A stretch of 43,555 nucleotides of DNA from a virus (lineage: Duplodnaviria > Heunggongvirae > Uroviricota > Caudoviricetes). The stretch lies in IMG/VR virus record IMGVR_UViG_2563366965_000004; one strand, 5' to 3'. The notes beneath the pieces were generated by a model, which was not told the origin of the DNA, made no database searches, and saw only the letters and a program-made list of their open reading frames with translations. Shown here in pieces: positions 1-43,555 of the stretch; position 1 is the stretch's first letter, and each line of letters begins with the position of its first letter. Position numbers and translations under genes: made by a program.

Positions 1-1194
1 ATGATCACCGACACAAAGCTCAGGAAGGCGCTCGGCAAGAAAAGAGATGATATCGAGATTATTTCTGATTCGCACGGGCTCAACGCCAGAATCAGCCAGG
101 CCGGAAAAATATCATTTTTCTATCGGTATCGCTGGGCCGGTAAAGCGGTAAAACTCAATGTTGGTGATTATCCTGCAATGAGTATCACCCAGGCAAGAGA
201 GCGTCGCCAACAATTCAGAAACTGGTTAACTGAGGGACTGGATCCGCGAGAGCAGGTGAAGCTGGATAAGCAGACCCGACAGGAAGCGATGTCCGTTGCC
301 GAAGCGTTCAATTACTGGATTGAAAGGCACTGTATCGCTAACGGGCTAGTTAAAGTCGATTACTATCGCCAGGTGTTTGAGAAACATATCGCCGAACCGA
401 TGAAGAATGTCAAAGTCGATAACACAGCGAAAATGCACTGGATCAACGTCTTCGATTCTATAGAAAGCAGGGTGATGGCTCATTACATGCTTTCGCTGTG
501 CAAACGGGCGTTTAGGTTCTGCGTTAACAGAAGTGTGATCGCCTCAAACCCACTCGAGGGATTACTGCCATCTGATGTCGGGCAAAAGCCTAAAAAGAGA
601 ACTCGCAGGATGGACGATGACGATCTGCGCAAAATCTATCAGTGGTTGAAAAGCCATATGTCGATAGAGTCCGTTTTCCTGGTGAAATTTATTATGCTTA
701 CCGGATGCCGTACGGCTGAGATTCGACTTAGTGAGAGATCATGGTTTCGATTGGATGATAATGAGTGGGTCGTGCCTGCGGGCAGTTATAAAACTCGGGT
801 ACATATTAGAAGGGGACTCTCAGACGCCGCCGTTAACCTGGTCAGAAATCACCTCAAGAAAATAAACACCAATCACCTGGTGACTTCACAACGTAAAATT
901 GATGGCGGGATCAAAGATTCGCCCGTTCATTCACCTGTGGCATCCAATTACGCCCGTTCTATTTGGAATGGAACAGGTATGGCAGAGTGGTCGCTTCATG
1001 ATATGAGGCGGACGATAGCCACAAATCTCTCTGAGTTAGGTTGCCCGCCGCACGTAATTGAAAAGCTGCTCGGGCATCAGATGGTGGGGGTTATGGCGCA
1101 TTACAACCTTCATGACTATATCGATGATCAGAAACACTGGCTCCGCGTTTGGCAGAGCCATCTTGAAGAGATCATCGGAGAGCCCTTCAGTTAA
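1..1194 (+). CDS. int: Phage integrase, tyrosine recombinase
   Basis: 397-aa ORF; N-terminal arm-binding-like region ([10 protein letters not shown]) and C-terminal catalytic region (HDMRRT...LLGHQ...MAHY) typical of P4/Rac-type integrases; terminal position in the prophage. Confidence 0.85.
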
Positions 1195-1388
1195 TTTATC
1201 TTCTTTTTATCCTCCCACTCTTTGATTGACTCAGAGCGCCAGCGGTTAGGGTTGCCGGGCCAGTCAGGGGGTGGGAACGGGCATACGAAGCCCCGAGGCA
1301 TTGTGTCTGCACTTTGCCATGACCAAAGGGTTTTGCGTGAAATTTTGTAGCGACTGGTCAGGTCTGACGTTACCAAAATATCATCCAT
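1191..1388 (-). CDS. Putative excisionase / small DNA-binding protein (Xis-like)
   Basis: ATG at 1388 preceded by GGAGAG RBS; 65 aa, basic and Trp-rich; 3' end overlaps the int stop; the track ORF extends to a TTG at 1433. Confidence 0.5.
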
Positions 1389-1429
1389 AGCTCTCTCCAG
1401 TTGCCCGTTCGGGCCATTCAAAATCTTTT

Positions 1430-1672
1430 TCAACCAACCTGCCCGGGCAGGGAGCGGAGACGGCGCATGCCGGTCATCGCTGTGGCCACGTAGCTCGCCT
1501 TTCGGTTCACCACCTCCACCCAGACTTTCACGCCTTCAACCTTCACCGTATAAGTCTCTTTCATCTTGCTTCGCCCATAGTCGCCATATGTTTGCAAGTG
1601 AGCTGCCAGCGCGATGTCGCATGCTTGGCGAGCTAAAGGTGATTGCTTACTTCCTCGATTGATCAGTCGCAT
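1430..1672 (-). CDS. Hypothetical early protein (80 aa)
   Basis: ATG at 1672 with strong AGGAG RBS 6 nt upstream; tightly packed between recT and xis. Confidence 0.5.
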   Translation of the reverse strand: MRLINRGSKQSPLARQACDIALAAHLQTYGDYGRSKMKETYTVKVEGVKVWVEVVNRKASYVATAMTGMRRLRSLPGQVG

Positions 1673-1710
1673 ATAATCTCCTTGAGGGAGGGTTACCCCT
1701 CCCGGTCTCG

Positions 1711-2829
1711 TCAGGCCACGTATTCCGGTTTCATATCCGCCAGGGTGATGCTGAATTGATCGTGCAGTTCATCGCCTAAGTGACGCTTTGAAGATGCAAG
1801 CATGCGCTCGGCTTCAGCGAACCGTTCGGCTGCATGCGGCTCGTCGGGCTGGGGCAGGGATTTAATAGCCTCCTCAACCTTGTTGCGTGCATCCACTAGG
1901 TAATAACGCTTTACGGCTTTGTTTTTCAGCTCGGTGAATAGTGCGGATCCCAGCGTAGCTTTCGCCGTTTCAATGTCGGCACGCAGCGATTTGGCGCTAT
2001 CCACGTCCTGAGCAGATTCGATGCGTTCGCGGAAATCATCGGCAAGAGAGTCGACATTTACCGACGATTCCTGTGCGCTTTGCGTGGTTGTGACGGTGTC
2101 ACCTGAGATATCAGCCAGGCTAACGCGTTGCGGCGTTGGGTTGATCTCTTTTTCTGTGCGCTGTTCAATCTCATCAGGGGTGTACACACCAAGAACAACT
2201 GCAGGGCAATATAGGCGCGCCCAGTATTTGAGTGCCAGATAAGCGATCTGCTGTTTCGGGTTTGATACCCAAAGTGGAGAATTACGTGTGATTACGCTGG
2301 AGAGGAAAACAGGCTCTCCCCAGGTGATATCACTTTCACCGCGAATAACGGCACCTACCCGTACCGACAGTCCTTGTTCATCAGCACTTTCCCAACCGCG
2401 TACCATTTCTTTCTTGTCGTACGTCCCGCCACCTTTCGCAGGCTTTTTAACGGTTATCTCGCGGCTGCTGGCACATTTCGACCAGTCGCCCTCGTACTCA
2501 TAGTGAAAGCGGCCAACGATGGCGTTTGAGCTGGAGATCACCGCATTAACCAGTTGCGCTTCGTATCCCAGGACACCGTTAACCAGGTGCGTCTTTTGCG
2601 CCACGGCGTAAGGGTTCATACCCCACTGCATCGCCTGCATGATGATGGCCATGCAGTCTGCCGGATTGCCGCGGAGGTGCTCAGGCACCGTTACGGCTGC
2701 CTGTGCCATCAACCCGGCGACAGACTGAAGCTGGGTTAAAGCCTGCACGTTGAAAATGGCATTGCTGGCTGAGATCGTGTTTGGAGTCTGCTGTTCAGCG
2801 GTTACGATATTCGTGTTTTCCATCATCAT
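1711..2829 (-). CDS. recT: RecT/Red-beta family single-strand annealing protein
   Basis: 372-aa ORF immediately downstream of the large exonuclease gene (classic recE-recT arrangement); central QWGMNPYA...GVLGYEAQLVNAV segment resembles the RecT/Bet core. Confidence 0.65.
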   Translation of the reverse strand: MMMENTNIVTAEQQTPNTISASNAIFNVQALTQLQSVAGLMAQAAVTVPEHLRGNPADCMAIIMQAMQWGMNPYAVAQKTHLVNGVLGYEAQLVNAVISSSNAIVGRFHYEYEGDWSKCASSREITVKKPAKGGGTYDKKEMVRGWESADEQGLSVRVGAVIRGESDITWGEPVFLSSVITRNSPLWVSNPKQQIAYLALKYWARLYCPAVVLGVYTPDEIEQRTEKEINPTPQRVSLADISGDTVTTTQSAQESSVNVDSLADDFRERIESAQDVDSAKSLRADIETAKATLGSALFTELKNKAVKRYYLVDARNKVEEAIKSLPQPDEPHAAERFAEAERMLASSKRHLGDELHDQFSITLADMKPEYVA

Positions 2830-2834
2830 TCCCC

Positions 2835-5743
2835 TTATGCCTGAGTACGCAGCGCTTCAAGGCGGCGCAGGTCGAAGTCGTTCAGTTCGTCGGTGTAGTC
2901 AGCAGTGATTGGCGCTGGCCATTCACCTGTGTCGAATCCGGTTGCGATATTGCGCATCGCTTTGCGGTACTCGAGCATACCCAGCTCCAGTAGTTCAGCG
3001 GATGCCTCGATGATGGCGATCCAGTGGTAGTTCTCGTCTTTGTTGACGAAAATCCAGAAGAACTGATCCAGCGCTGCGGTTTCGCAGTACATAGCCGCGC
3101 TCAGGTGATAATCACGTTCAATAATTTCCCGGTGTAGCCTGGCGCGCAGGCTTTCCTGCTTAACATTCCACATGCTGATGGTTTTCAGGTCTGCACCTAT
3201 ACGCACGCCATCCAGGTCGATCTCAAGGTCAGGGCGCACACGAACTTCCAAGCCCGTCTCCTCGTCAAAACCAAAGTAGCTCACCTCAACGGCTCGGCTA
3301 GGGTGGGTCAGCAGCATGCCGGCGGTCGGGTGTGCCAGAAGCGCTTTTTGAATATTCAGCGCGGTGCTCAGCTGCTGGCGGGTGACCAGCACTTTTCCTT
3401 CCGGGTTATCGCGCCAGGCATCCAGCAGTTCGTCGGCAAATACGGCATCTGGTTTGACTGCCTTCACGGCCTGGATCATGTCTGCTTTGGTACCGGACAC
3501 TTTCAGTGGTGCCGGTTTCTGAGCTTCCTGAGCCACAAGGTCAGGGTTGATGATTGCCAACTGCTCCAGTAGCGCGTCACGGCTGCCGCTGGTTTTAACC
3601 GGCGGCGGCAGGGTGGCGTTGTACTCTTTAATGCATGCCTTCATTGCCGTCGCCGTCTGCTTCTGGTCACCATCAATACGCTGGAAGTCAGCTGGCAGCG
3701 CCATATAGTTCTGTGCCGTTTCTTCCAGGTTAGCGCCAAGCGGAACCTGCGGCGGCAGGGTGGCGTTGTACTCTTCCAGTAACACCTTGATGTCGTCGGC
3801 AGACAGCAGCGCCGGCAGGCTGGCATTGTGCTCATCGATAAAGGCGCGCAGGGTCGCGGCCGTTGTGAATGCGCCTTCCGGAATTACGGGTTCAACGCTA
3901 AATTCTTCATCGAGCTGTTCTGGCTGCAACGCCAGCGCATGTACCAGGTTTCCCATGTCCAGCACTGAGGAGCGCTCTTTGACGATGGTTTTCTCTACGT
4001 GGCGCGCATTGAAGTACATCAGCGAAACGCGCGCATCTTTTACCTGGGTGGAACTGATGCCGTTGGCAGCGTGGTAAACCTCGTTCGGCAGACCTTCATA
4101 GCGCCCAGGCTCGAAGTAATCGGGGTAAAAAACAGCTTGTTCGTCAGATTGCGCCTCTGGCTCGACGTGTGCCAAAACTGGTTCAGTCTGGTTTACAGAA
4201 TCGCTATTTTGAGCGACAGATTCCGTATTTTGGTTTACATCGGCCTGCTGGCCGGGATGTGACTCTTCACCAGTTTCCAGACTGCTTTCGCCTGACTGCA
4301 TTTCATTACCAACATTTTTTTCATCACTGACAGTTTCTTGAACCTGCACATTGCTGGTGGTTTCCGTAGCCTGTTTCGTGCCATGAGTTGCTGAGTTCTG
4401 CAGTAAAGCCGTAACATCGAATATTCCGTTGCCGACATTTTTAACCAGTTCTTGTTCGGCTTTATGTGGTTGTGCTGTCGCTTCCTCTGCGCGGCGGCGT
4501 GCTTCTTCTTCACGTACGCGTTGCAGGTTCTCTTCGTGAGTGCAGAAGGGTTTGCGTGGAGACTCCTTACTTTCAGGTTGGGGAATTTCCTGTGTTGCGG
4601 GCTCAGCTTCATGCAATGGCAATAACTCAACAGCAGCATTAAACGCAGCAGTCATGGTCCGGTTAACAAACTCCAGGTGAGCGACAGGAGTTAGATGAAT
4701 ATTTTCCGGCGCGATACGTATCAGGTTAAAAATAGCTGTGCGGTTAACGCCAAGAACGCCGGGTTGATTGCGCAGAATGCTGCTCCATGATTTCCACGGT
4801 TCTTCTTTTTTGGTCACGATTTCTTTAGCGCGACGAAGAATGCTGCCCGGGATCTCGAAGTGGTTGAAGTCCATAGGCAGAAGGGCACATGCAATCTCTA
4901 AATCTAGAGTGTCAAGGGTATGGTATGTATCAGGTCCACGGTCAGTGACGTAACCGCCGTTGGCATTGGTTCCGGAATCAGTACGCTGAACACTACTGAT
5001 GTGATTACCGGCAGCCCATTCACGCGCCAGGATGCCACGGTCAATGTAATCAGTAGCCGCCCACATTCTGGTGAAACGGAGTACCAGCGCGAGTTCGTGA
5101 CGCTTGTCCTGGCTGAACACTTTGCGAATGGCATCGGTGTAGCGCCACAGGTCTTTGGTGTCGTAACCCTTCACTTCCGGGCAGTTCTCAGCAGCTAACA
5201 GCAAGTTCTGGACGTAACTGTTATCAGTGTCCATCTCCAGCGCGCCGATAGCTTCGTACTCTTCGCGGGTTACGTGGTGGCGCAGTTCGTCGGCGGTGAA
5301 CTGGGAAAGCAGTTGCTTACGAAACGGCATCTGCACTACCGGGTAGAGGGTTGAGTCGTCGTCGTGTTCGTCCAGCGTGATGCCAGCGGTTTCTGGCAGC
5401 GTTGACTCAGTAGTTATGTGACTATCAACGGTCTGAGCCGTTTTCTCGTCAGAGTTTTCAGCTGTGACTTTTGGCAGCCAGGTGCGGTCATCGTTCTGCA
5501 GTTCGTAGCGTTCGCACCAGGTGTAATCCACTGCGCCTTCTTCCGGCAGGTCGTCATATACCGGGAAATCGGTGCGGATTGGTTTGGCATAATCTTTACC
5601 GCGGCCAGTTTCTTCAATTCCGGCTTCTTCCAGTGCCACATCGAGTTGGAGATTGGCGCGCGCTACACTTTTCGCAGTGAACCAAATCACTGCATCTTTC
5701 TTGCCAGACTTCTGACTGGCTTTTATCAGATGGAAAAATTCCA
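2835..5743 (-). CDS. recE: RecE-like exodeoxyribonuclease VIII
   Basis: Large ORF with a long acidic/low-complexity N-terminal region and a C-terminal nuclease-like domain; likely start is the ATG at 5743 (GAGGA RBS) rather than the track start at 5849. Confidence 0.65.
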
Positions 5744-5882
5744 TGTGAGATCCTCTTTTTTGAGTGTTAGAATCCCCGGGCCAGAGATAGCGCCCATTGG
5801 ATGTTTTTTGGTTTGGTATAAATTCCGGTGTAACTTTGGTCGGTGGCACCGGACGTGAATCCCGCCTTGCGCGGGTTTTACG

Positions 5883-6044
5883 TTAGCCTTCGTGAGCCAT
5901 CTGGTCGTGCGAAGCGCAACGTACTGAACAGTAATCACGTTGCTCGCGTTTCAACTGCGTGCCGTGGATAAAGAGCAGTTCGTTTTTAACTTCCTTCCCT
6001 TGCTTGATCGGCTTGCGGCAGTACGCGCATTTTTTCTCCTGCAT
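5883..6044 (-). CDS. Small Cys-rich zinc-ribbon-like protein (53 aa)
   Basis: Untracked ORF MQEKKCAYCRKPIKQ...CSVRCASHDQMAHEG with CxxC...CxxxC; GGAG RBS; position corresponds to the small zinc-binding gene next to recE in Rac-type prophages. Confidence 0.4.
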   Translation of the reverse strand: MQEKKCAYCRKPIKQGKEVKNELLFIHGTQLKREQRDYCSVRCASHDQMAHEG

Positions 6045-6055
6045 AACTCACTCCG

Positions 6056-6262
6056 TTAATGGCTAAGGCCATGTCCTAAACCGTTTAGATAAACCTCAAC
6101 CAGCAAATCTTTGGTGTAGGTACGTTCGATGCCACGGTGAAGATACAGGCGACCGCGTGCGTTAGCAGATGCGGTCCAGGTTGAGTCTTTGTGTTTTACA
6201 AGCATCCCCGGCTGAACTGCGCCGCGGTTTACTGTCTGTGTACCGTAGTGCTGATGAACCAT
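6056..6262 (-). CDS. Hypothetical small early protein (68 aa; possibly Kil-like)
   Basis: ATG at 6262 with GGAG RBS (spacer 6); the track ORF to 6406 starts at TTG; stop lies 12 nt before the next gene. Confidence 0.35.
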   Translation of the reverse strand: MVHQHYGTQTVNRGAVQPGMLVKHKDSTWTASANARGRLYLHRGIERTYTKDLLVEVYLNGLGHGLSH

Positions 6263-37977: not shown

Positions 37978-38558
37978 AGCAACTCTTTAAACATGCAGCG
38001 ACCAGGATTGCCGGCATGCTGGGGATTGGCCGGATCACGGCTATGAAAGATGGTGGAGTGGTGCAGTCAATCCAGTACCAGACTCCGCTGGAGGTGGCCA
38101 GCGCACCGCGGATGGCAGAATTTGGCTTTTCATCCGGCCTGCCTGCAGGGACTGACGTGGTTCTGGCTTTTATTGGCGGTGATCGTTCCAGCGCGGTGGT
38201 AATTGCGTCCAACCATCAGGGGTTCCGTCATACAGGCCTGAAAGCGGGCGAAACGGTCATGTATAACCAGTGGGGCCTTAATATTCTCCTGACGGAGAAG
38301 GGGATCTTCCTGGATGCAAAGGGCCAGAATGTTGAGGTCAATAACGCCACTAACGTGACCATCAATGCCAGCCAGGGGATCCTTGCAAATACCCCGATCC
38401 TGAGGTGTACGGGTGACATTGTTGATAACTGTGAAACCAATACCCGAACACTGAAAGAGCTGCGGGATGCACATAATGACCATGATCATGTGGTTAAAAA
38501 TGCCCAGAGTGGCAATGACAATATCCGCAGCCAAAAAACAGAGGATCAGGTGACATGA
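37974..38558 (+). CDS. Baseplate assembly protein V / spike (gp45-like)
   Basis: 194 aa; Gly-rich beta-strand core and conserved position. Confidence 0.7.
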   Translation: MKQLFKHAATRIAGMLGIGRITAMKDGGVVQSIQYQTPLEVASAPRMAEFGFSSGLPAGTDVVLAFIGGDRSSAVVIASNHQGFRHTGLKAGETVMYNQWGLNILLTEKGIFLDAKGQNVEVNNATNVTINASQGILANTPILRCTGDIVDNCETNTRTLKELRDAHNDHDHVVKNAQSGNDNIRSQKTEDQVT

Positions 38559-38992
38559 GTGACATCGCTTCATTCTGGAATGTGGATGAGATGTTTGCTG
38601 ACTGGCAGAAAGGGCTGGGTGAACTCACCACGGGGAACGATTTACAGACTGCAATACTGGACAGCCTGTTTACCGACAGGCTGGCGCGCGCTGACGATGA
38701 TTATGAGGATAGCGATCGCCGCGGCTGGTGGGGGGATTCCGGGGAGGAATCCCAACTGGGATCCCGGCTGTGGCTGCTACGGCGGAAAAAACTGACCCCG
38801 GATGTAGCAAAAAAAGCGGAGGAATACTCGAGTGAAGCGCTCAACTGGTTAAAGGTTGATGGCGTTGTCAGCGAGGTTATTCCTGTTGCCAGGATCGTCC
38901 TGCCTGACCGGCTCAATCTCATTATCCGCTATCAGGCACCGGGGAAGGACTGGCAGGAATTCAGGTTTTACTGGATATGGGAGCAACGTTAA
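38555..38992 (+). CDS. Baseplate protein (GPW/gp25-like, Mu gp46-like)
   Basis: 145-aa ORF in the conserved baseplate series. Confidence 0.65.
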   Translation: MSDIASFWNVDEMFADWQKGLGELTTGNDLQTAILDSLFTDRLARADDDYEDSDRRGWWGDSGEESQLGSRLWLLRRKKLTPDVAKKAEEYSSEALNWLKVDGVVSEVIPVARIVLPDRLNLIIRYQAPGKDWQEFRFYWIWEQR

Positions 38993-38993
38993 T

Positions 38994-40136
38994 ATGCCGT
39001 TTAAACGACCGACGCTGAGCGAACTCCGCGACGGAAACCGGAAATTTATGCAGGCGGAGCTTGAGGATGTTGGTGCGCTCCTGCGGTTCGCGAACCTGAA
39101 GGTACTGGCTGACATGGATGCGGGGATGGGGCATTTGCATTACGCCTACCTTGACTATATTGCCCTGCAGACAAACCCGTTTACCTCTACCGATGAGTAT
39201 CTCGCCGGGTGGATGGCCCTTAAGCAGGTATTCAGAAAACCAGCTGCAGCGGCGAAGTCGCCTGCGGTACAGGCTAGTGGCAGTGTTGACAGTATTATCC
39301 CTGTTGGCTCGATCATTAACCGCGGGGACGGATACCAGTACCGGACGGATGCAGATCTTAAAATTCAGGCAGATGGATTTGGTATCGTCGCGGTGACGGC
39401 CATCCTGCCGGATATTACCAGTGATGTAACGGGTGGAGGCGCGCGCGGTAACGCTGATGCCGGGACCATAATGACCCTGGACGCGAATATTGCTGGCGTG
39501 GATCCACAGGTAACGTTACTGTCCGCTGCGACCGGCGGAGCCGATATTGAAACGGAAGAGGACTTTCGCAGTCGTGGCTTGCTGGCATGGCAGAATCCGC
39601 CTCAGGGTGGAAGCGACGCCGATTATAAAAAATGGGCGCTTGAGGTTTCGGGCGTCACCCGCGCGTGGGTAAAGCGGCGTCTGAACGGGGCCGGTACCGT
39701 TGGCGTGTATATCATGTGTGATCGGAATGACAATGGTGGGTTTCCGGTCGGTACCGATGGAATATCCCAACTTGAGGACTGGGGGGCTGTTAAAGCCACC
39801 GGAGACCAGCTCGCTGTCGCCGACCACATCTATCCGCAGCAGACAGACACTGCCATTGTTTTCGTATGTTCCCCGATCAAGAAAGTCATCAATATTGAAA
39901 TCTCTGGTATCAAAAATGCCGACAGCACCACAGTTCAGGGTATAAAAGACGCGCTGACGGCGCTATTTTTTGATGAGGCTAACCCTGATGGTTCCGGGAA
40001 AGTTTACCTCTCTGATATTAACGGGAGTATCGGCGGTGTTAGTGGCACGACGGGCTATATCCTTAACTCTCCGATGGCCAATATCACCTTTGCTGTTGGC
40101 GAAATTCCGGTGCTTGGTGGGGTGAATTTTGTATGA
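38994..40136 (+). CDS. Baseplate J-like protein (Mu gp47-like)
   Basis: 380 aa from ATG 38994 (track ORF starts upstream at 38856). Confidence 0.8.
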   Translation: MPFKRPTLSELRDGNRKFMQAELEDVGALLRFANLKVLADMDAGMGHLHYAYLDYIALQTNPFTSTDEYLAGWMALKQVFRKPAAAAKSPAVQASGSVDSIIPVGSIINRGDGYQYRTDADLKIQADGFGIVAVTAILPDITSDVTGGGARGNADAGTIMTLDANIAGVDPQVTLLSAATGGADIETEEDFRSRGLLAWQNPPQGGSDADYKKWALEVSGVTRAWVKRRLNGAGTVGVYIMCDRNDNGGFPVGTDGISQLEDWGAVKATGDQLAVADHIYPQQTDTAIVFVCSPIKKVINIEISGIKNADSTTVQGIKDALTALFFDEANPDGSGKVYLSDINGSIGGVSGTTGYILNSPMANITFAVGEIPVLGGVNFV

Positions 40137-40726
40137 GCCTCTTTTCAAAAAATGATTATGCCGGTGCGCTTGGCGCGTTGCTGCCGACGGGCAGGGCGTG
40201 GCCCAGATCGCAAAAAACGGTACAGGCTGCGGTATTACGGGCACTGGGCAGCGCGTTTCAGCGTTCTGACAACGATGCGCAAAGCCTGATTACTGGTGCT
40301 TTTCCCCCTACAGCGACGGTAATGTTGTCAGAATGGGAAAGCTCTCTGGGGTTACCAGATGATTGTGCGATTGGTGAATCCGGTGGCGTCAGCGATCGCC
40401 AGCGCGCCGTGGTGGCAAAGTTAATCAGCACCGGCGGCCTGAACCGCGATTATTACATCCGGGTGGCTGCAGCTCTTGGTTATACCATCACTATCACACA
40501 GTTCAGGCCCGCTATGAGTGGCATGTCAGTATGCGGTGATGCGCTTAACGGTGACGAGTGGCCATTTACCTGGCGGATAAATGCGCCACAAACAACGATC
40601 AAGTATTCGCTTGCTGGCGCGTCCTACTGCGGAGATCCGCTCGCATCGTGGGGCAATAAACAACTGGAGTGTTCAATCAACAAAATTGCCCCATCCCATC
40701 TGAACATCATTTTCAATTATTCATAA
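40133..40726 (+). CDS. Tail protein (Mu gp48-like, DUF2313-like)
   Basis: 197 aa directly upstream of the tail-fibre gene. Confidence 0.65.
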   Translation: MSLFSKNDYAGALGALLPTGRAWPRSQKTVQAAVLRALGSAFQRSDNDAQSLITGAFPPTATVMLSEWESSLGLPDDCAIGESGGVSDRQRAVVAKLISTGGLNRDYYIRVAAALGYTITITQFRPAMSGMSVCGDALNGDEWPFTWRINAPQTTIKYSLAGASYCGDPLASWGNKQLECSINKIAPSHLNIIFNYS

Positions 40727-40777
40727 CTGATATTTCCCCCTCTGATTTTATCGCTTAACACTAAGTGAGGATTAACT

Positions 40778-41413
40778 ATGCTCCGAATCGGGCAAGTCGA
40801 AGCCACTGCAACGCAGGATGGCAAATATACTGATGGAAGTGTTGCTGGTGGTATTGCCGCAACGAGGCTGCGGGCAGCAGCGTTTAACGCCATGCAGGAA
40901 GAGTTAGCGCATATCGTAGAGTCAGCAGGATTGGCGCTCGACATTAACGATATGACTCAGGTTTTAAAAGCCATTCAAAAACTCACACTGAGCCGTGCAA
41001 ACCCATTTGCCGATATCAAATCAGATGGAGCAGCGGCGATTTCTACGGCTCTCACAAACCTTGGTTTGGGAGAAGCGGCTAAAAGAAATGTAGGGACAGG
41101 GGCGAATCAGATACCTGATATGGGTAGTTTTATGCTTTCTGCTTCAGTTCCTGGATATCAAAAATTGCCATCCGGTTTAATTATTCAATGGGGGCCAATT
41201 GATGTTCCGCTGACGTCTCAGGACACAGTAACCTATTTTCCGATTGCATTTCCGAATAGATGTCTGCGGGTATTTGCGACTCAGGATTACACTCCCGGCA
41301 GTGCAAATGTTGGCTATATAGCTTGTGCCGGTTATAACCAGGACCCGGTGAAATTTATTTCCAGAGCAGGCGTACCCGGTATCGGTGCTTCATTTTTCGC
41401 ATTAGGGTGTTAA
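40778..41413 (+). CDS. Tail fibre protein (constant N-terminus fused to currently expressed variable C-terminus)
   Basis: N-terminal [38 protein letters not shown] is the conserved P2 H / Mu S-type fibre start; an inversion crossover site lies at codon 95-103. Confidence 0.7.
41049..41075. repeat. Invertase crossover site, left (gix/hix-like)
   Basis: CTCTCACAAACC-TT-GGTTTGGGAGAAG: dyad with AAACC-NN-GGTTT core inside the fibre gene, as in Gin/Hin sites. Confidence 0.65.
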
Positions 41414-41439
41414 TTTCTTTTAACTTTATGGAGTGAAAA

Positions 41440-41880
41440 ATGAATTACATATATTCCGCGACTACAAACTCTTTCTATCCCTTGGAGATGAAAGAGGATT
41501 ACACGCAAGCTGACTCATGGCCAGATGATGCTGTTGAAGTTGATGAGCAAGTGTATATTGAGTTTTCCGGATTACCGCCGAAAGGAAAAATCCGTATCGC
41601 TGGAGAAAATGGTTTTCCTGCATGGTCTGAAATTCCACCACCATCACATGAGGAACTTATTGAACAGGCCGAATCAGAGAGGCAATTATTGATTAACCAT
41701 GCCAACGAATACATGAACAGTAGGCAATGGTCTGGTAAAGCAGCTATTGGTCGCCTGAAGGGGGACGAGCTGGCGCAATATAATTTGTGGCTGGATTATC
41801 TGGACGCACTGGAACTGGTCGATACTTCCGGGGCGCCAGATATTGAATGGCCTACGCCTCCGGCAGTTCAGGCCAGATGA
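41440..41880 (+). CDS. Tail fibre assembly chaperone (Tfa), currently expressed orientation
   Basis: 146 aa; conserved Tfa C-terminus (LWLDYLDALELVDTSGAPDIEWP). Confidence 0.8.
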   Translation: MNYIYSATTNSFYPLEMKEDYTQADSWPDDAVEVDEQVYIEFSGLPPKGKIRIAGENGFPAWSEIPPPSHEELIEQAESERQLLINHANEYMNSRQWSGKAAIGRLKGDELAQYNLWLDYLDALELVDTSGAPDIEWPTPPAVQAR

Positions 41881-42454
41881 CATCCGGCGCTGTGCTGGTA
41901 TCTGTTGCCGTCACCGCGTCAATGTAATCCAGCACAGTGTTAAGTCGGGTGGTCTCTGCCTGCATCAGCTTCCGCCCGGCCTGCAATTTAAGTTGAATCA
42001 GACTAATGGAAGCCATTGCAGTATTAATCAGTGACTGACGCTGTACTTCTGCCGCGTCTACTGCGGCGCTATGCTGTGCCTCAGTATCGGTCACCCATTT
42101 CTTACCATCCCATTTATCGAATGGCGTTAACGGGGCGATAGTGGTTGTATTTTCAGGATAATCACCCGGAGCTGTGATTTCTTTGGCGTCTCCCGTTTCG
42201 GTTTTATAGACGATTTCACCGCGATGGTCTGGCACATATTCCCATGAGTTTAAATCCATCGAACGGCAGATAGCATAACCCGCCTTATGTATACCAGGTT
42301 CATCCAGACAGGAATATGCAGGGATACCGACACCAATGGCAAGATATTCATTTGAAGTAGAAATATATTCCCGAGTTTTACCATCATAGTTATAGACGGT
42401 AATATTCCCCGCCTTCGTAGCAATAAGCTCGCTATTTAATACGGCGTTATCCAT
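41852..42454 (-). CDS. Alternative tail fibre assembly chaperone (Tfa')
   Basis: 200 aa on the opposite strand; C-terminus (VLDYIDAVTATDTSTAPDVIWP) parallels Tfa; 3' ends of the two tfa genes overlap. Confidence 0.75.
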   Translation of the reverse strand: MDNAVLNSELIATKAGNITVYNYDGKTREYISTSNEYLAIGVGIPAYSCLDEPGIHKAGYAICRSMDLNSWEYVPDHRGEIVYKTETGDAKEITAPGDYPENTTTIAPLTPFDKWDGKKWVTDTEAQHSAAVDAAEVQRQSLINTAMASISLIQLKLQAGRKLMQAETTRLNTVLDYIDAVTATDTSTAPDVIWPELPEA

Positions 42455-42951
42455 TATGCAGCCCTCACGATATAGTTAAATGCAATATTTCGTGGACGGG
42501 TTTCACTCCCGCCAGTATTACCGATACTCCCTCGTTGATGAAGTGTCGGTGATGGGATCAGACTCCCTCCTGTATTTGTGGCATCAAGTCCCCGTCCTTG
42601 TGTGTATGTTTTTTTGAAAATCGTAGCCAGTTCCCATTCATCTTTTGTGTCGTAACCATCATTGGCAACAACAATATGACGGTGCTTTTCCAGCATCCCA
42701 GCCTGAAGGCTCAATAAAGCACGTCCTGCATCAATACCGCGCCCATCATCCCAGCCACGAATAAATTCACCTCGTAAATCAGGCAATTTATTTGTCGGGT
42801 AAGCCTTTGCCAGTTCCGGGTATTCTTCAGCAGAAAAAGCCGCCCCGTTGCATTTCAGCCAGCCTGTTGGAGGTGTCTCTGAAGGCCACGGAACAGGTGC
42901 ACCAACAGGTAATGCTGAACCTTCTCCCAAACCAACCTTTTTTATAACCAT
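42454..42951 (-). CDS. Alternative tail-fibre variable C-terminal segment (promoterless cassette)
   Basis: Opposite-strand ORF whose 5' end carries the inversion site and the same GLGE codons as the expressed fibre; would be fused in frame to the constant region after inversion. Confidence 0.65.
   Translation of the reverse strand: MVIKKVGLGEGSALPVGAPVPWPSETPPTGWLKCNGAAFSAEEYPELAKAYPTNKLPDLRGEFIRGWDDGRGIDAGRALLSLQAGMLEKHRHIVVANDGYDTKDEWELATIFKKTYTQGRGLDATNTGGSLIPSPTLHQRGSIGNTGGSETRPRNIAFNYIVRAA
42921..42947. repeat. Invertase crossover site, right (gix/hix-like)
   Basis: CTTCTCCCAAACC-AA-CCTTTTTTATAA; left half is the exact reverse complement of the left site's right half. Confidence 0.6.
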
Positions 42952-43006
42952 CAAAAATCTGGTGATGCTTCGCCGTTTCTCCTGTTTTCATAACAGGAGA
43001 AATCCC

Positions 43007-43555
43007 ATGATTTACGGTTATGCCCGAGTATCAACAAACCACCAGGACACTGAATTGCAACTAACGGCGCTCAAGTCAGCGGGTTGTGAGAAAATTTTTG
43101 AAGAGCATGCCAGCGGGAGGAAATCGAATCGGCCGGTTCTAAAACGGCTGATCGCCACTATGCAGCCGGGGGATGAACTGGTGGTCTGGAAGCTGGACAG
43201 GATAGGCCGCAACGTTCTGCATGCGCTGTTGATGTTCCAGCAGTTACAGGAAAAGGGTATCAACTTCCGCAGTATTACCGATGGCGTGGATCTCAAAACA
43301 GCCAGCGGCCGCTATAACTTTCGTAACATCCTTTCCGCAGCACAATATGAATCTGATCTTAATAGCGAACGTACCTTAGCAGGGCTGGCCGTAGCCAGGG
43401 CAAAAGGGCGAGTTGGTGGTCGCAGGCCTAAGTTCACGGATGAGCAATGGCGGGAAATGGGGGAGCGGATGACAACCGGTGAATCACGACAAAGCGTATC
43501 AAAAACGTATGGAGTAGGGCTCTCAACTCTGTATAAAAAGTTTCCAGCTAGCTGA
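43007..43555 (+). CDS. Site-specific DNA invertase, serine recombinase (Gin/Hin/Pin family)
   Basis: MIYGYARVSTNHQDTELQ...VVWKLDRIGRN...GLSTLYKK: catalytic Ser region and C-terminal HTH match Gin/Hin as recalled; ATG 43007 with AGGAGA RBS; stop at window end. Confidence 0.95.
   Translation: MIYGYARVSTNHQDTELQLTALKSAGCEKIFEEHASGRKSNRPVLKRLIATMQPGDELVVWKLDRIGRNVLHALLMFQQLQEKGINFRSITDGVDLKTASGRYNFRNILSAAQYESDLNSERTLAGLAVARAKGRVGGRRPKFTDEQWREMGERMTTGESRQSVSKTYGVGLSTLYKKFPAS

Follow-up and report, generated by a model that had tools for sequence, protein, structure and literature searches.

Invertible tail-fibre cassettes, in which a site-specific recombinase turns a DNA segment within the fibre locus, have been known for decades. 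In Escherichia coli K-12, the 1797-bp P segment of the e14 prophage inverts at 5'-TTGGTTTGGGAGAAGG-3' and 5'-CCTTCTCCCAAACCAA-3', and each of the invertases PinE, PinQ and PinR is able to invert it (PMC12529663). Systematic scans for programmed inversions also show an enrichment of such cassettes, and tail-fibre genes recur in them as a class (PMC9881135). Here, we examine the IMG/VR virus record IMGVR_UViG_2563366965_000004, a stretch of 43,555 nucleotides (hereafter the window) for which a cassette of this kind, with an adjacent Gin/Pin-type invertase, had been predicted from the letters alone. Our analysis indicates that the window very probably carries an invertible tail-fibre cassette of the e14 P / Mu G type, in an intact contractile-tailed prophage located at the phi80 attachment site.

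Recombination sites and the two fibre alleles

The cassette is built around two inverted 26-bp sites, each with half-sites of ~12 bp around a 2-bp core (TT/AA). The features to which we refer below are the following.

40133-40726, + strand: baseplate wedge protein of the Mu gp48 / e14 YmfQ family (Pfam Phage_Mu_Gp48, E 1.2e-32; listed for context)
40778-41062, + strand: constant fibre N-terminus, codons 1-95, part of the open reading frame (ORF) 40778-41413
41049-41074: left recombination site, 26 bp, read directly (outer half CTCTCACAAACC, core TT at 41061-41062, inner half GGTTTGGGAGAA)
41063-41413, + strand: variable cassette A, a gp53-like fibre C-terminus, currently expressed (Pfam Gp53-like_C, E 3.2e-18)
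41440-41880, + strand: Tfa assembly chaperone for cassette A, 146 aa (Pfam Caudo_TAP, E 2.6e-36)
41852-42454, - strand: TfaE-like assembly chaperone for cassette B, 200 aa (Pfam Caudo_TAP, E 5.7e-31)
42454-42933, - strand: variable cassette B, a silent tail-collar fibre C-terminus (Pfam Collar, E 7.6e-16)
42922-42947: right recombination site, 26 bp, read directly (inner half TTCTCCCAAACC, core AA at 42934-42935, outer half CCTTTTTTATAA)
42961-43003, + strand: pair of hairpins in the spacer that precedes the invertase ATG (RNA fold -25.1 kcal/mol, z -4.7)
43007-43555, + strand: small serine DNA invertase of the phi80 PinL type, 182 aa (Pfam Resolvase, E 3.7e-39; HTH_7, E 4.4e-09)

The inverted repeat is exact over 15 bp, with TTGGTTTGGGAGAAG at 41061-41075 and its reverse complement CTTCTCCCAAACCAA at 42921-42935. 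The original prediction had described a dyad inside the tail-fibre gene and a repeat of 13 bp. The dyad is indeed read at 41049-41075, as CTCTCACAAACC-TT-GGTTTGGGAGAAG, and its right half is reverse-complemented at 42921-42933 as proposed, but the exact repeat takes in the central dinucleotide and so reaches 15 bp. Within the 43.5-kb window the 13-mer GGTTTGGGAGAAG has exactly two copies (41063-41075 on the + strand and 42921-42933 on the - strand), and no separated inverted repeat of the region 40700-43555 is longer than the 15-bp one. When this region was simulated with a first-order Markov model, 3 of 1000 simulations contained a separated exact inverted repeat of 15 bp or longer, and 36 contained one of 13 bp or longer.

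As a search pattern for sites of the hix/gix/pix kind we used TTCTCNNAAACCNNGGTTTNNGAGAA, which we take to be their 26-bp consensus. This pattern fits 41049-41074 with a single mismatch, and no match was obtained in 100 shuffles of the whole window. At the right site, the half-site pattern was matched exactly and the outer half, CCTTTTTTATAA, is degenerate. The published repeats of the e14 P segment are present at both ends, TTGGTTTGGGAGAAG(G) on the left site and CCTTCTCCCAAACCAA on the right one.

Scans with the 26-bp and the half-site patterns revealed no further sites of the same kind in or near the segment, and the element is therefore regarded as a two-state switch; a multi-site, shufflon-like system was considered and rejected. 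Half-site-like matches were found at 5579, 5808 and 11570, but these are far from the segment and were judged incidental. Two of them lie within a RecE-like exonuclease gene (2835-5849), where the 14-mers TTATGCCAAACCAA and TTATACCAAACCAA (5579-5592 and 5808-5821, - strand) form direct repeats 229 bp apart; each shows 2 mismatches to the invertase half-site, and the resemblance is probably fortuitous.

Both ORFs read X-TT-GGT-TTG-GGA-GAA across the site, hence GLGE, and the - strand ORF continues as ...KKVGLGEGSAL.... The present fibre (40778-41413) is 211 aa long, with a gp53-like C domain as its C-terminal 83 residues. On the - strand, the silent collar ORF (42454-42954, 166 codons) starts with MMVIKKVGLGE in the outer half of the right site. 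The two C-terminal domains, gp53-like C and Collar, are unrelated to each other, and all cassette ORFs are intact. Inversion in silico between the two cores joins the 95 constant codons in frame to the collar cassette, giving a fibre of 254 aa whose stop codon overlaps the start of the TfaE-like gene (TAATG).

The left site lies in frame at the junction of the constant and variable parts, so a flip would exchange the fibre tip together with its chaperone, and the constant N-terminus stays in place in either orientation of the segment. In the mechanism that we propose, dimers of the serine invertase would bind the sites at 41049-41074 and 42922-42947, the bound sites would synapse, both would be cut at the 2-bp core (TT/AA), and rotation followed by religation would invert the 1871 bp between the cores. 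The gp53-like tip and its chaperone would thereby be replaced by the collar tip and the TfaE-like chaperone, and a lysogen population would release virions with either of two receptor specificities. PinL itself presumably catalyzes the flip in this lysogen, and the two fibres would be expected to confer different host ranges.

Most of the original prediction agrees with these results: GLGE is encoded across the site in both the fibre ORF and the - strand ORF, the fibre C-terminus and Tfa would be swapped in frame, and the module is complete, since the in-frame site, the two cassettes with their Caudo_TAP chaperones and the full-length recombinase with Resolvase and HTH_7 domains are all intact. 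Other elements of it need correction. The module had been given a start at 41049, which leaves out the constant N-terminus beginning at 40778, and the "G(+)-like" orientation assigned to it is an arbitrary label. The serine invertase gene that was said to follow immediately is present, but its ATG at 43007 lies 59 bp past the right site, behind a spacer with the two hairpins.

The two tfa genes are convergent and overlap by 29 bp at their 3' ends (41852-41880), as do tfaP and tfaE of e14, and the two Tfa proteins end similarly (APDIEWPTPP and APDVIWPELP). NCBIfam provided no specific model for the invertase or the fibre parts.

Public genomes and the prophage locus

Prophages with the same backbone at the same yciI/tonB locus were found in both orientations: the window and NCTC 13148 share one, and E. 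coli KMi029 has the other. In KMi029, the constant part is fused to a collar-type tip and the gp53-type cassette is silent beside the invertase, the reverse of the arrangement in NCTC 13148. The flanks of these two genomes are colinear and 99.85% and 99.82% identical, the internal DNA is on the opposite strand, and the change of strand occurs inside the 15-bp repeats (window positions 41075 and 42921). On the PinL backbone, oppositely oriented segments are only 79-95% identical. We also counted junctions in 5426 complete E. coli genomes, ~30 of which have the constant region at 94-99% identity. Of these, 3-6 have it fused to a gp53-type tip and 15 to a collar-type tip; in the others, homology ends at 41075.

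The segment of the window also occurs in an e14-like prophage, where it is bordered by e14-type outer half-sites. An e14-like pair, L027 and L029, provides the cleanest comparison, as the flanks are 100.000% identical over 2960 bp on each side and the segment between them is inverted. This segment is 99.9% identical to that of the window in one member of the pair and 99.2% in the other, with the breakpoints within the 15-bp repeat.

Assemblies give a further indication. The public contig L033 (ERR13926429) consists of 1875 bp that are 100% identical to window positions 41061-42935 and nothing else, and two other contigs (L030 and L035) begin at 41061 to the base. Contig ends of this type are the assembly signature of both junctions, or of several contexts, in the reads. 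Two further contig ends were rejected as evidence of mixed orientation. Contig L014 ends 107 bp inside the collar cassette, not at the repeat, and this is likely a repeat-driven break because the collar cassette matches ~2000 E. coli records; L015 starts at 42925, where homology with the variant prophage L013 begins as well.

Damaged switches are present in some copies of this prophage. In E. coli Z22-6 (L001, 6079-6369), homology breaks at 41075 and is absent over 41076-41857, and the fibre gene is annotated as truncated. On the silent side, L013 (SRR26982599) has only a truncated tfa and a remnant cassette, and in L005 an insertion with an acyltransferase and with integrase fragments separates the cassette from the invertase. 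A different rearrangement is seen in L019 (GCA_000460715.1, 2380-3453), which has a split PinE-like gene whose 5' part is fused to 313 bp of the collar cassette (99.4% identity to window 42538-42850); this may be an aberrant recombination product.

The chromosomal position was deduced from the scaffold KE136840.1 of GCA_000408045.1, which is 100% identical to the window over 38007-43555 and continues downstream of the invertase with YCII-, 4HBT-, IspA- and OmpW-family genes. Annotated E. coli relatives have yciI, tonB, yciA, yciB and ompW at the same place. The window begins with a tyrosine integrase gene and ends with the invertase gene, whose stop codon reaches the final base. At its left end, identity to phi80 is 99.5% over 1.65 kb and identity to mEp237 is 98.2% over 4.7 kb (1-4674, with int, xis and early genes); at its right end, from 42921 onwards, it shares 93-96% identity with the pinL region of both phages. 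In phi80, attP lies between pinL and int, which accounts for the location of int and the invertase gene at opposite ends of the prophage and for its integration at the phi80 site near tonB/trp.

Between these phi80/mEp237-like ends, the virion genes are those of a contractile tail of the Mu/SfV/e14 type. The interior encodes a terminase, a portal, a major head protein, a sheath, a tape measure protein and a Mu-type baseplate; the final baseplate gene before the fibre, 40133-40726, has a product that shares 35% of its residues with e14 YmfQ and 31% with Mu gp48. The window is therefore a mosaic myovirus prophage: the set of virion genes is complete, the integration module is of the phi80 type and the tail of the e14/Mu type.

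The PinL invertase and its upstream hairpins

The invertase aligns without gaps over residues 1-181 to the Gin structures 3UJ3 and 4M6F (E 5e-56). It is 98.9-99.5% identical to its counterparts in phi80 (pinL), mEp237 and HK225, 55% identical to PinE and 51% to Gin. The catalytic residues R7, S9, D64, R65 and R68 (window numbering) are present and are kept in 118-120 of the 120 closest homologues; the protein therefore has the catalytic serine of the class (Hin Ser10), together with a C-terminal helix-turn-helix (HTH). The best 120 database matches, 78-99% identical, come from Escherichia, Citrobacter, Klebsiella, Enterobacter, Salmonella, Serratia, Morganella and others; the PinL clade is common, and it is widespread in Enterobacteriaceae and Morganella. 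The designation Gin/Pin-type in the original prediction is appropriate for the fold, the catalytic residues and the type of site, but the enzyme belongs to a separate PinL clade, in which several Fis/enhancer residues are absent.

Hin residues 47, 48 and 51 (basic, helix B) and Gln151, Arg154 and Leu155 (helix 1 of the DNA-binding domain) are reported to be uniquely conserved among the Fis/enhancer-dependent invertases (PMC3798978). The window invertase has K, R and A at the first three positions and E, E and R at the last three, a departure from this pattern that makes its membership in the subclass doubtful. Columns 51, 151, 154 and 155 vary within the PinL clade, some members of which carry the canonical Q, R and L. 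Another set of residues, Phe105, Met109 and Leu112 of Hin, gates tetramer formation and holds the dimer inactive until activation by Fis, and the F105N substitution leads to Fis-independent cleavage and inversion (PMC4513852). At these positions the window invertase and every PinL-clade sequence retrieved (62-100% identical) have Asn, Ile and Ala, another departure from the subclass, and the essential Phe106 (Hin numbering) is kept. The invariant helix-E motif of PinL is GRYNFRNILSAAQYESDLNSERT (residues 101-123, 43307-43375), to be compared with GRFFFHVMxALAEMERELIxERT in Gin/Hin/Pin.

The region between the right site and the invertase gene folds into two hairpins, and none of 200 shuffles gave a structure as stable as that of 42961-43003. 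The second hairpin (42975-43003, 12 bp) pairs the Shine-Dalgarno sequence of the invertase, AGGAGA, and it is plausible that it acts as a translational throttle, which may keep the translation of the invertase low. In phi80 the hairpin is annotated as IR3 only, and the basal T-A pair of its stem is replaced by C-G. Trabulsiella, Kluyvera, Pseudocitrobacter, Shimwellia and Apirhabdus all have the outer half-site and the two hairpins conserved in front of their PinL genes; gene, outer half-site and upstream hairpins are conserved together across at least 6 genera.

Competing readings and comparison with known systems

Several observations weigh against a functional, PinL-driven switch in this prophage. 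The two orientations were seen by comparing genomes with one another and not within this lysogen. In both L027 and L029, the PinE-like gene adjacent to the flipped segment (5563-6113 and 3005-3555, respectively) is frameshifted near codon 125-134, and the flip was probably catalyzed in trans by another invertase; flips can therefore be trans-driven, and the role of PinL is only putative. In phi80 itself (L009, JX871397.1, 5001-5549), pinL has a premature stop in the HTH (GVGL*TLYKKFPAS) and is accompanied only by a tail-collar fragment pseudogene and the first 63 bp of a cassette, so that this copy has the look of an orphaned module in decay. A test of a PinL-type invertase was not found in the literature searched. 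The residues tied to Fis activation differ in the window invertase, as described above, and the distal Fis site of the gin/pinE enhancer appears not to be conserved. The recombinational enhancer of the Hin/Gin/Cin/Pin class has two Fis sites ~48 bp apart, within the 5' end of the invertase gene. In gin and pinE, Fis-like 15-mers are centred near nt 30 and nt 78; the first is retained in the window as GTATCAACAAACCAC, and the second position reads CAGCGGGTTGTGAGA and lacks the outer G and C, although Fis sites are degenerate and an enhancer could sit elsewhere. The synonymous-site profile shows conservation of codons 1-20 in both the PinL and the canonical clades and no signal at the distal Fis site in either, hence it has no power on this question.

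One alternative is that the cassette is invertible but is flipped mainly by host PinE, PinQ or PinR or by invertases of P2-like prophages, PinL being weak, inactive or otherwise employed. The e14 P segment, whose 15-bp repeat is identical, is inverted by PinE as well as by PinQ and PinR (PMC12529663), L027 and L029 are cleanly inverted despite the frameshifts next to the segment, and phi80 has retained only a pinL with a premature stop and remnants of the segment. Nevertheless, we consider this alternative unlikely, given that PinL of the window is full length with complete catalytic residues, that the PinL backbone itself is found in both orientations, and that the PinL gene, outer half-site and hairpins are kept as a unit in at least 6 genera, which argues for selection on function. 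A frozen relic, in which no inversion takes place now and the orientations seen elsewhere reflect old events or homologous exchange of cassettes, would be compatible with the 79-95% identity of opposite segments on the PinL backbone, as these flips need not be recent. It would also fit the exchange of cassettes between backbones, since e14-like prophages contain an identical segment and P2-like prophages contain similar segments. However, all comparisons place the breakpoints exactly inside the 15-bp repeats, inversion is the sole difference in a pair whose flanks are 100% identical, one contig equals the segment exactly, as expected with both junctions in one read set, and the ORFs are all intact, all of which makes a relic highly improbable.

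In addition to a host-range switch, or in its place, inversion could serve the lysogen as an anti-phage device. Inversion of the e14 P segment reportedly creates StfE2, a short leader followed by a gp53-like domain, which blocks the adsorption of T2 (PMC12529663), and the window has an equivalent leader ORF (MMVIKKVGLGE...) on its silent side (42454-42954), where the gp53-like domain would be placed after inversion; the free receptor-binding tip would then block the adsorption of other phages. This has, in our opinion, a low probability, because no convincing Shine-Dalgarno sequence precedes the start of that ORF, the leftward promoter-like match is weak (9/12) in a scan whose promoter-like matches, like those of the terminator scan, are at chance level in number, and a classical fibre switch is the simpler explanation for a prophage with a full virion gene set. 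As to the repeat itself, it might be a chance match or the trace of the conserved GLGE peptide motif, devoid of recombination function: repeats of at least 13 bp appear in 3.6% of the simulated regions, and the repeat does encode a peptide motif conserved in many fibres. But the simulated frequency for 15 bp is 0.003, the 26-bp dyad fits the consensus of invertase sites with no match in 100 shuffles, the sequence of the repeat is that of the e14 sites used in experiments, and the breakpoints in other genomes fall exactly there, which refutes this explanation and leaves it a negligible probability.

An invertible fibre cassette thus remains the preferred reading, and a further proposal concerns the control of its enzyme. 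The PinL-type invertases could form a separate subfamily without the classical Fis/enhancer checkpoint, with a flip rate set mainly by the scarce translation of a constitutively competent enzyme. This proposal is based on the Asn/Ile/Ala in helix E, the variable Fis-contact patch, the apparent lack of the distal Fis site of gin and pinE and the hairpin that buries the ribosome-binding site, and we put it forward only tentatively, as a possible but rather doubtful model.

The cassette is an ordinary member of a well-known family and looks functional. It adds nothing new in principle; its sites are already known from experiment and both orientations exist in public genomes. The one non-routine point is the departure of the PinL clade from Hin/Gin/Cin/Pin at the Fis-linked residues and the Fis site; if the proposal above were true, a small invertase that is independent of Fis by nature and acts on a defined 26-bp site would be of interest for the regulation of serine recombinases and for tools derived from them. 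In practical terms, the silent collar ORF and the 211-aa fibre should be annotated as two alleles of one gene, and two possible receptor specificities should be assumed for the prophage, which bears on host-range prediction and superinfection studies. Short-read assemblers, moreover, break at these sites.

Compared with the known systems, the window shares with Hin/hix of Salmonella, Cin/cix of P1 and Min of p15B the inverted sites made of two 12-bp half-sites around a 2-bp core, and PinL has the small serine recombinase fold and the catalytic residues in common with these enzymes. However, Hin controls a promoter and not a fibre, and PinL differs from it at positions 51, 105, 109, 112, 151, 154 and 155 and appears to be without the distal Fis site of gin/pinE. 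With Mu, the window shares the synteny (gp47, gp48, S, U, U', S', gin), Mu-type baseplate proteins and the logic of the G segment, i.e. a constant N-terminus and two variable C-termini with a chaperone each. The differences are the size of the G segment (~3 kb), the Mu fibre of 504 aa with its longer constant part, and the invertases, which are 51% identical; the repeats of Mu are 34 bp long.

The resemblance to e14 of K-12, read from record NC_000913, extends to the gene order and sizes (ymfQ-stfP-tfaP-tfaE-stfE-pinE) and to the crossover repeat, identical over 15 bp, with a segment of 1875 bp in the window and 1797 bp in e14. Of the products, the TfaE-like chaperone is 86.5% identical to TfaE and the collar cassette 58% to StfE; the Tfa of cassette A is 58% identical to TfaP in its C-terminal part, and the constant-plus-variable fibre is 38.5% identical to StfP. 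The active gp53-type cassette is nearer to the fibre gene of K-12 CPS-53 upstream of yfdK, with 99.5% nucleotide identity in a match that runs from 41047, at the left site, than to e14 stfP. In addition, the window invertase belongs to the PinL clade and is 55% identical to PinE, the outer half of the right site is CCTTTTTTATAA instead of CGTTTATGAAAA, and e14 is a 15-kb remnant in icd, whereas the window holds a complete prophage at the phi80 att site.

Finally, homology with phi80 and mEp237, which are lambdoid phages with non-contractile tails, begins exactly at the right repeat (42921) and spans the outer half-site and the IR3 hairpin, and phi80 also shares with the window the int/attP module and the chromosomal attachment site by yciI/tonB. 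These two phages have central tail fibres of the lambda J type and only remnants of the segment. The window, by contrast, combines the PinL module with an entire invertible cassette and a Mu-like tail.

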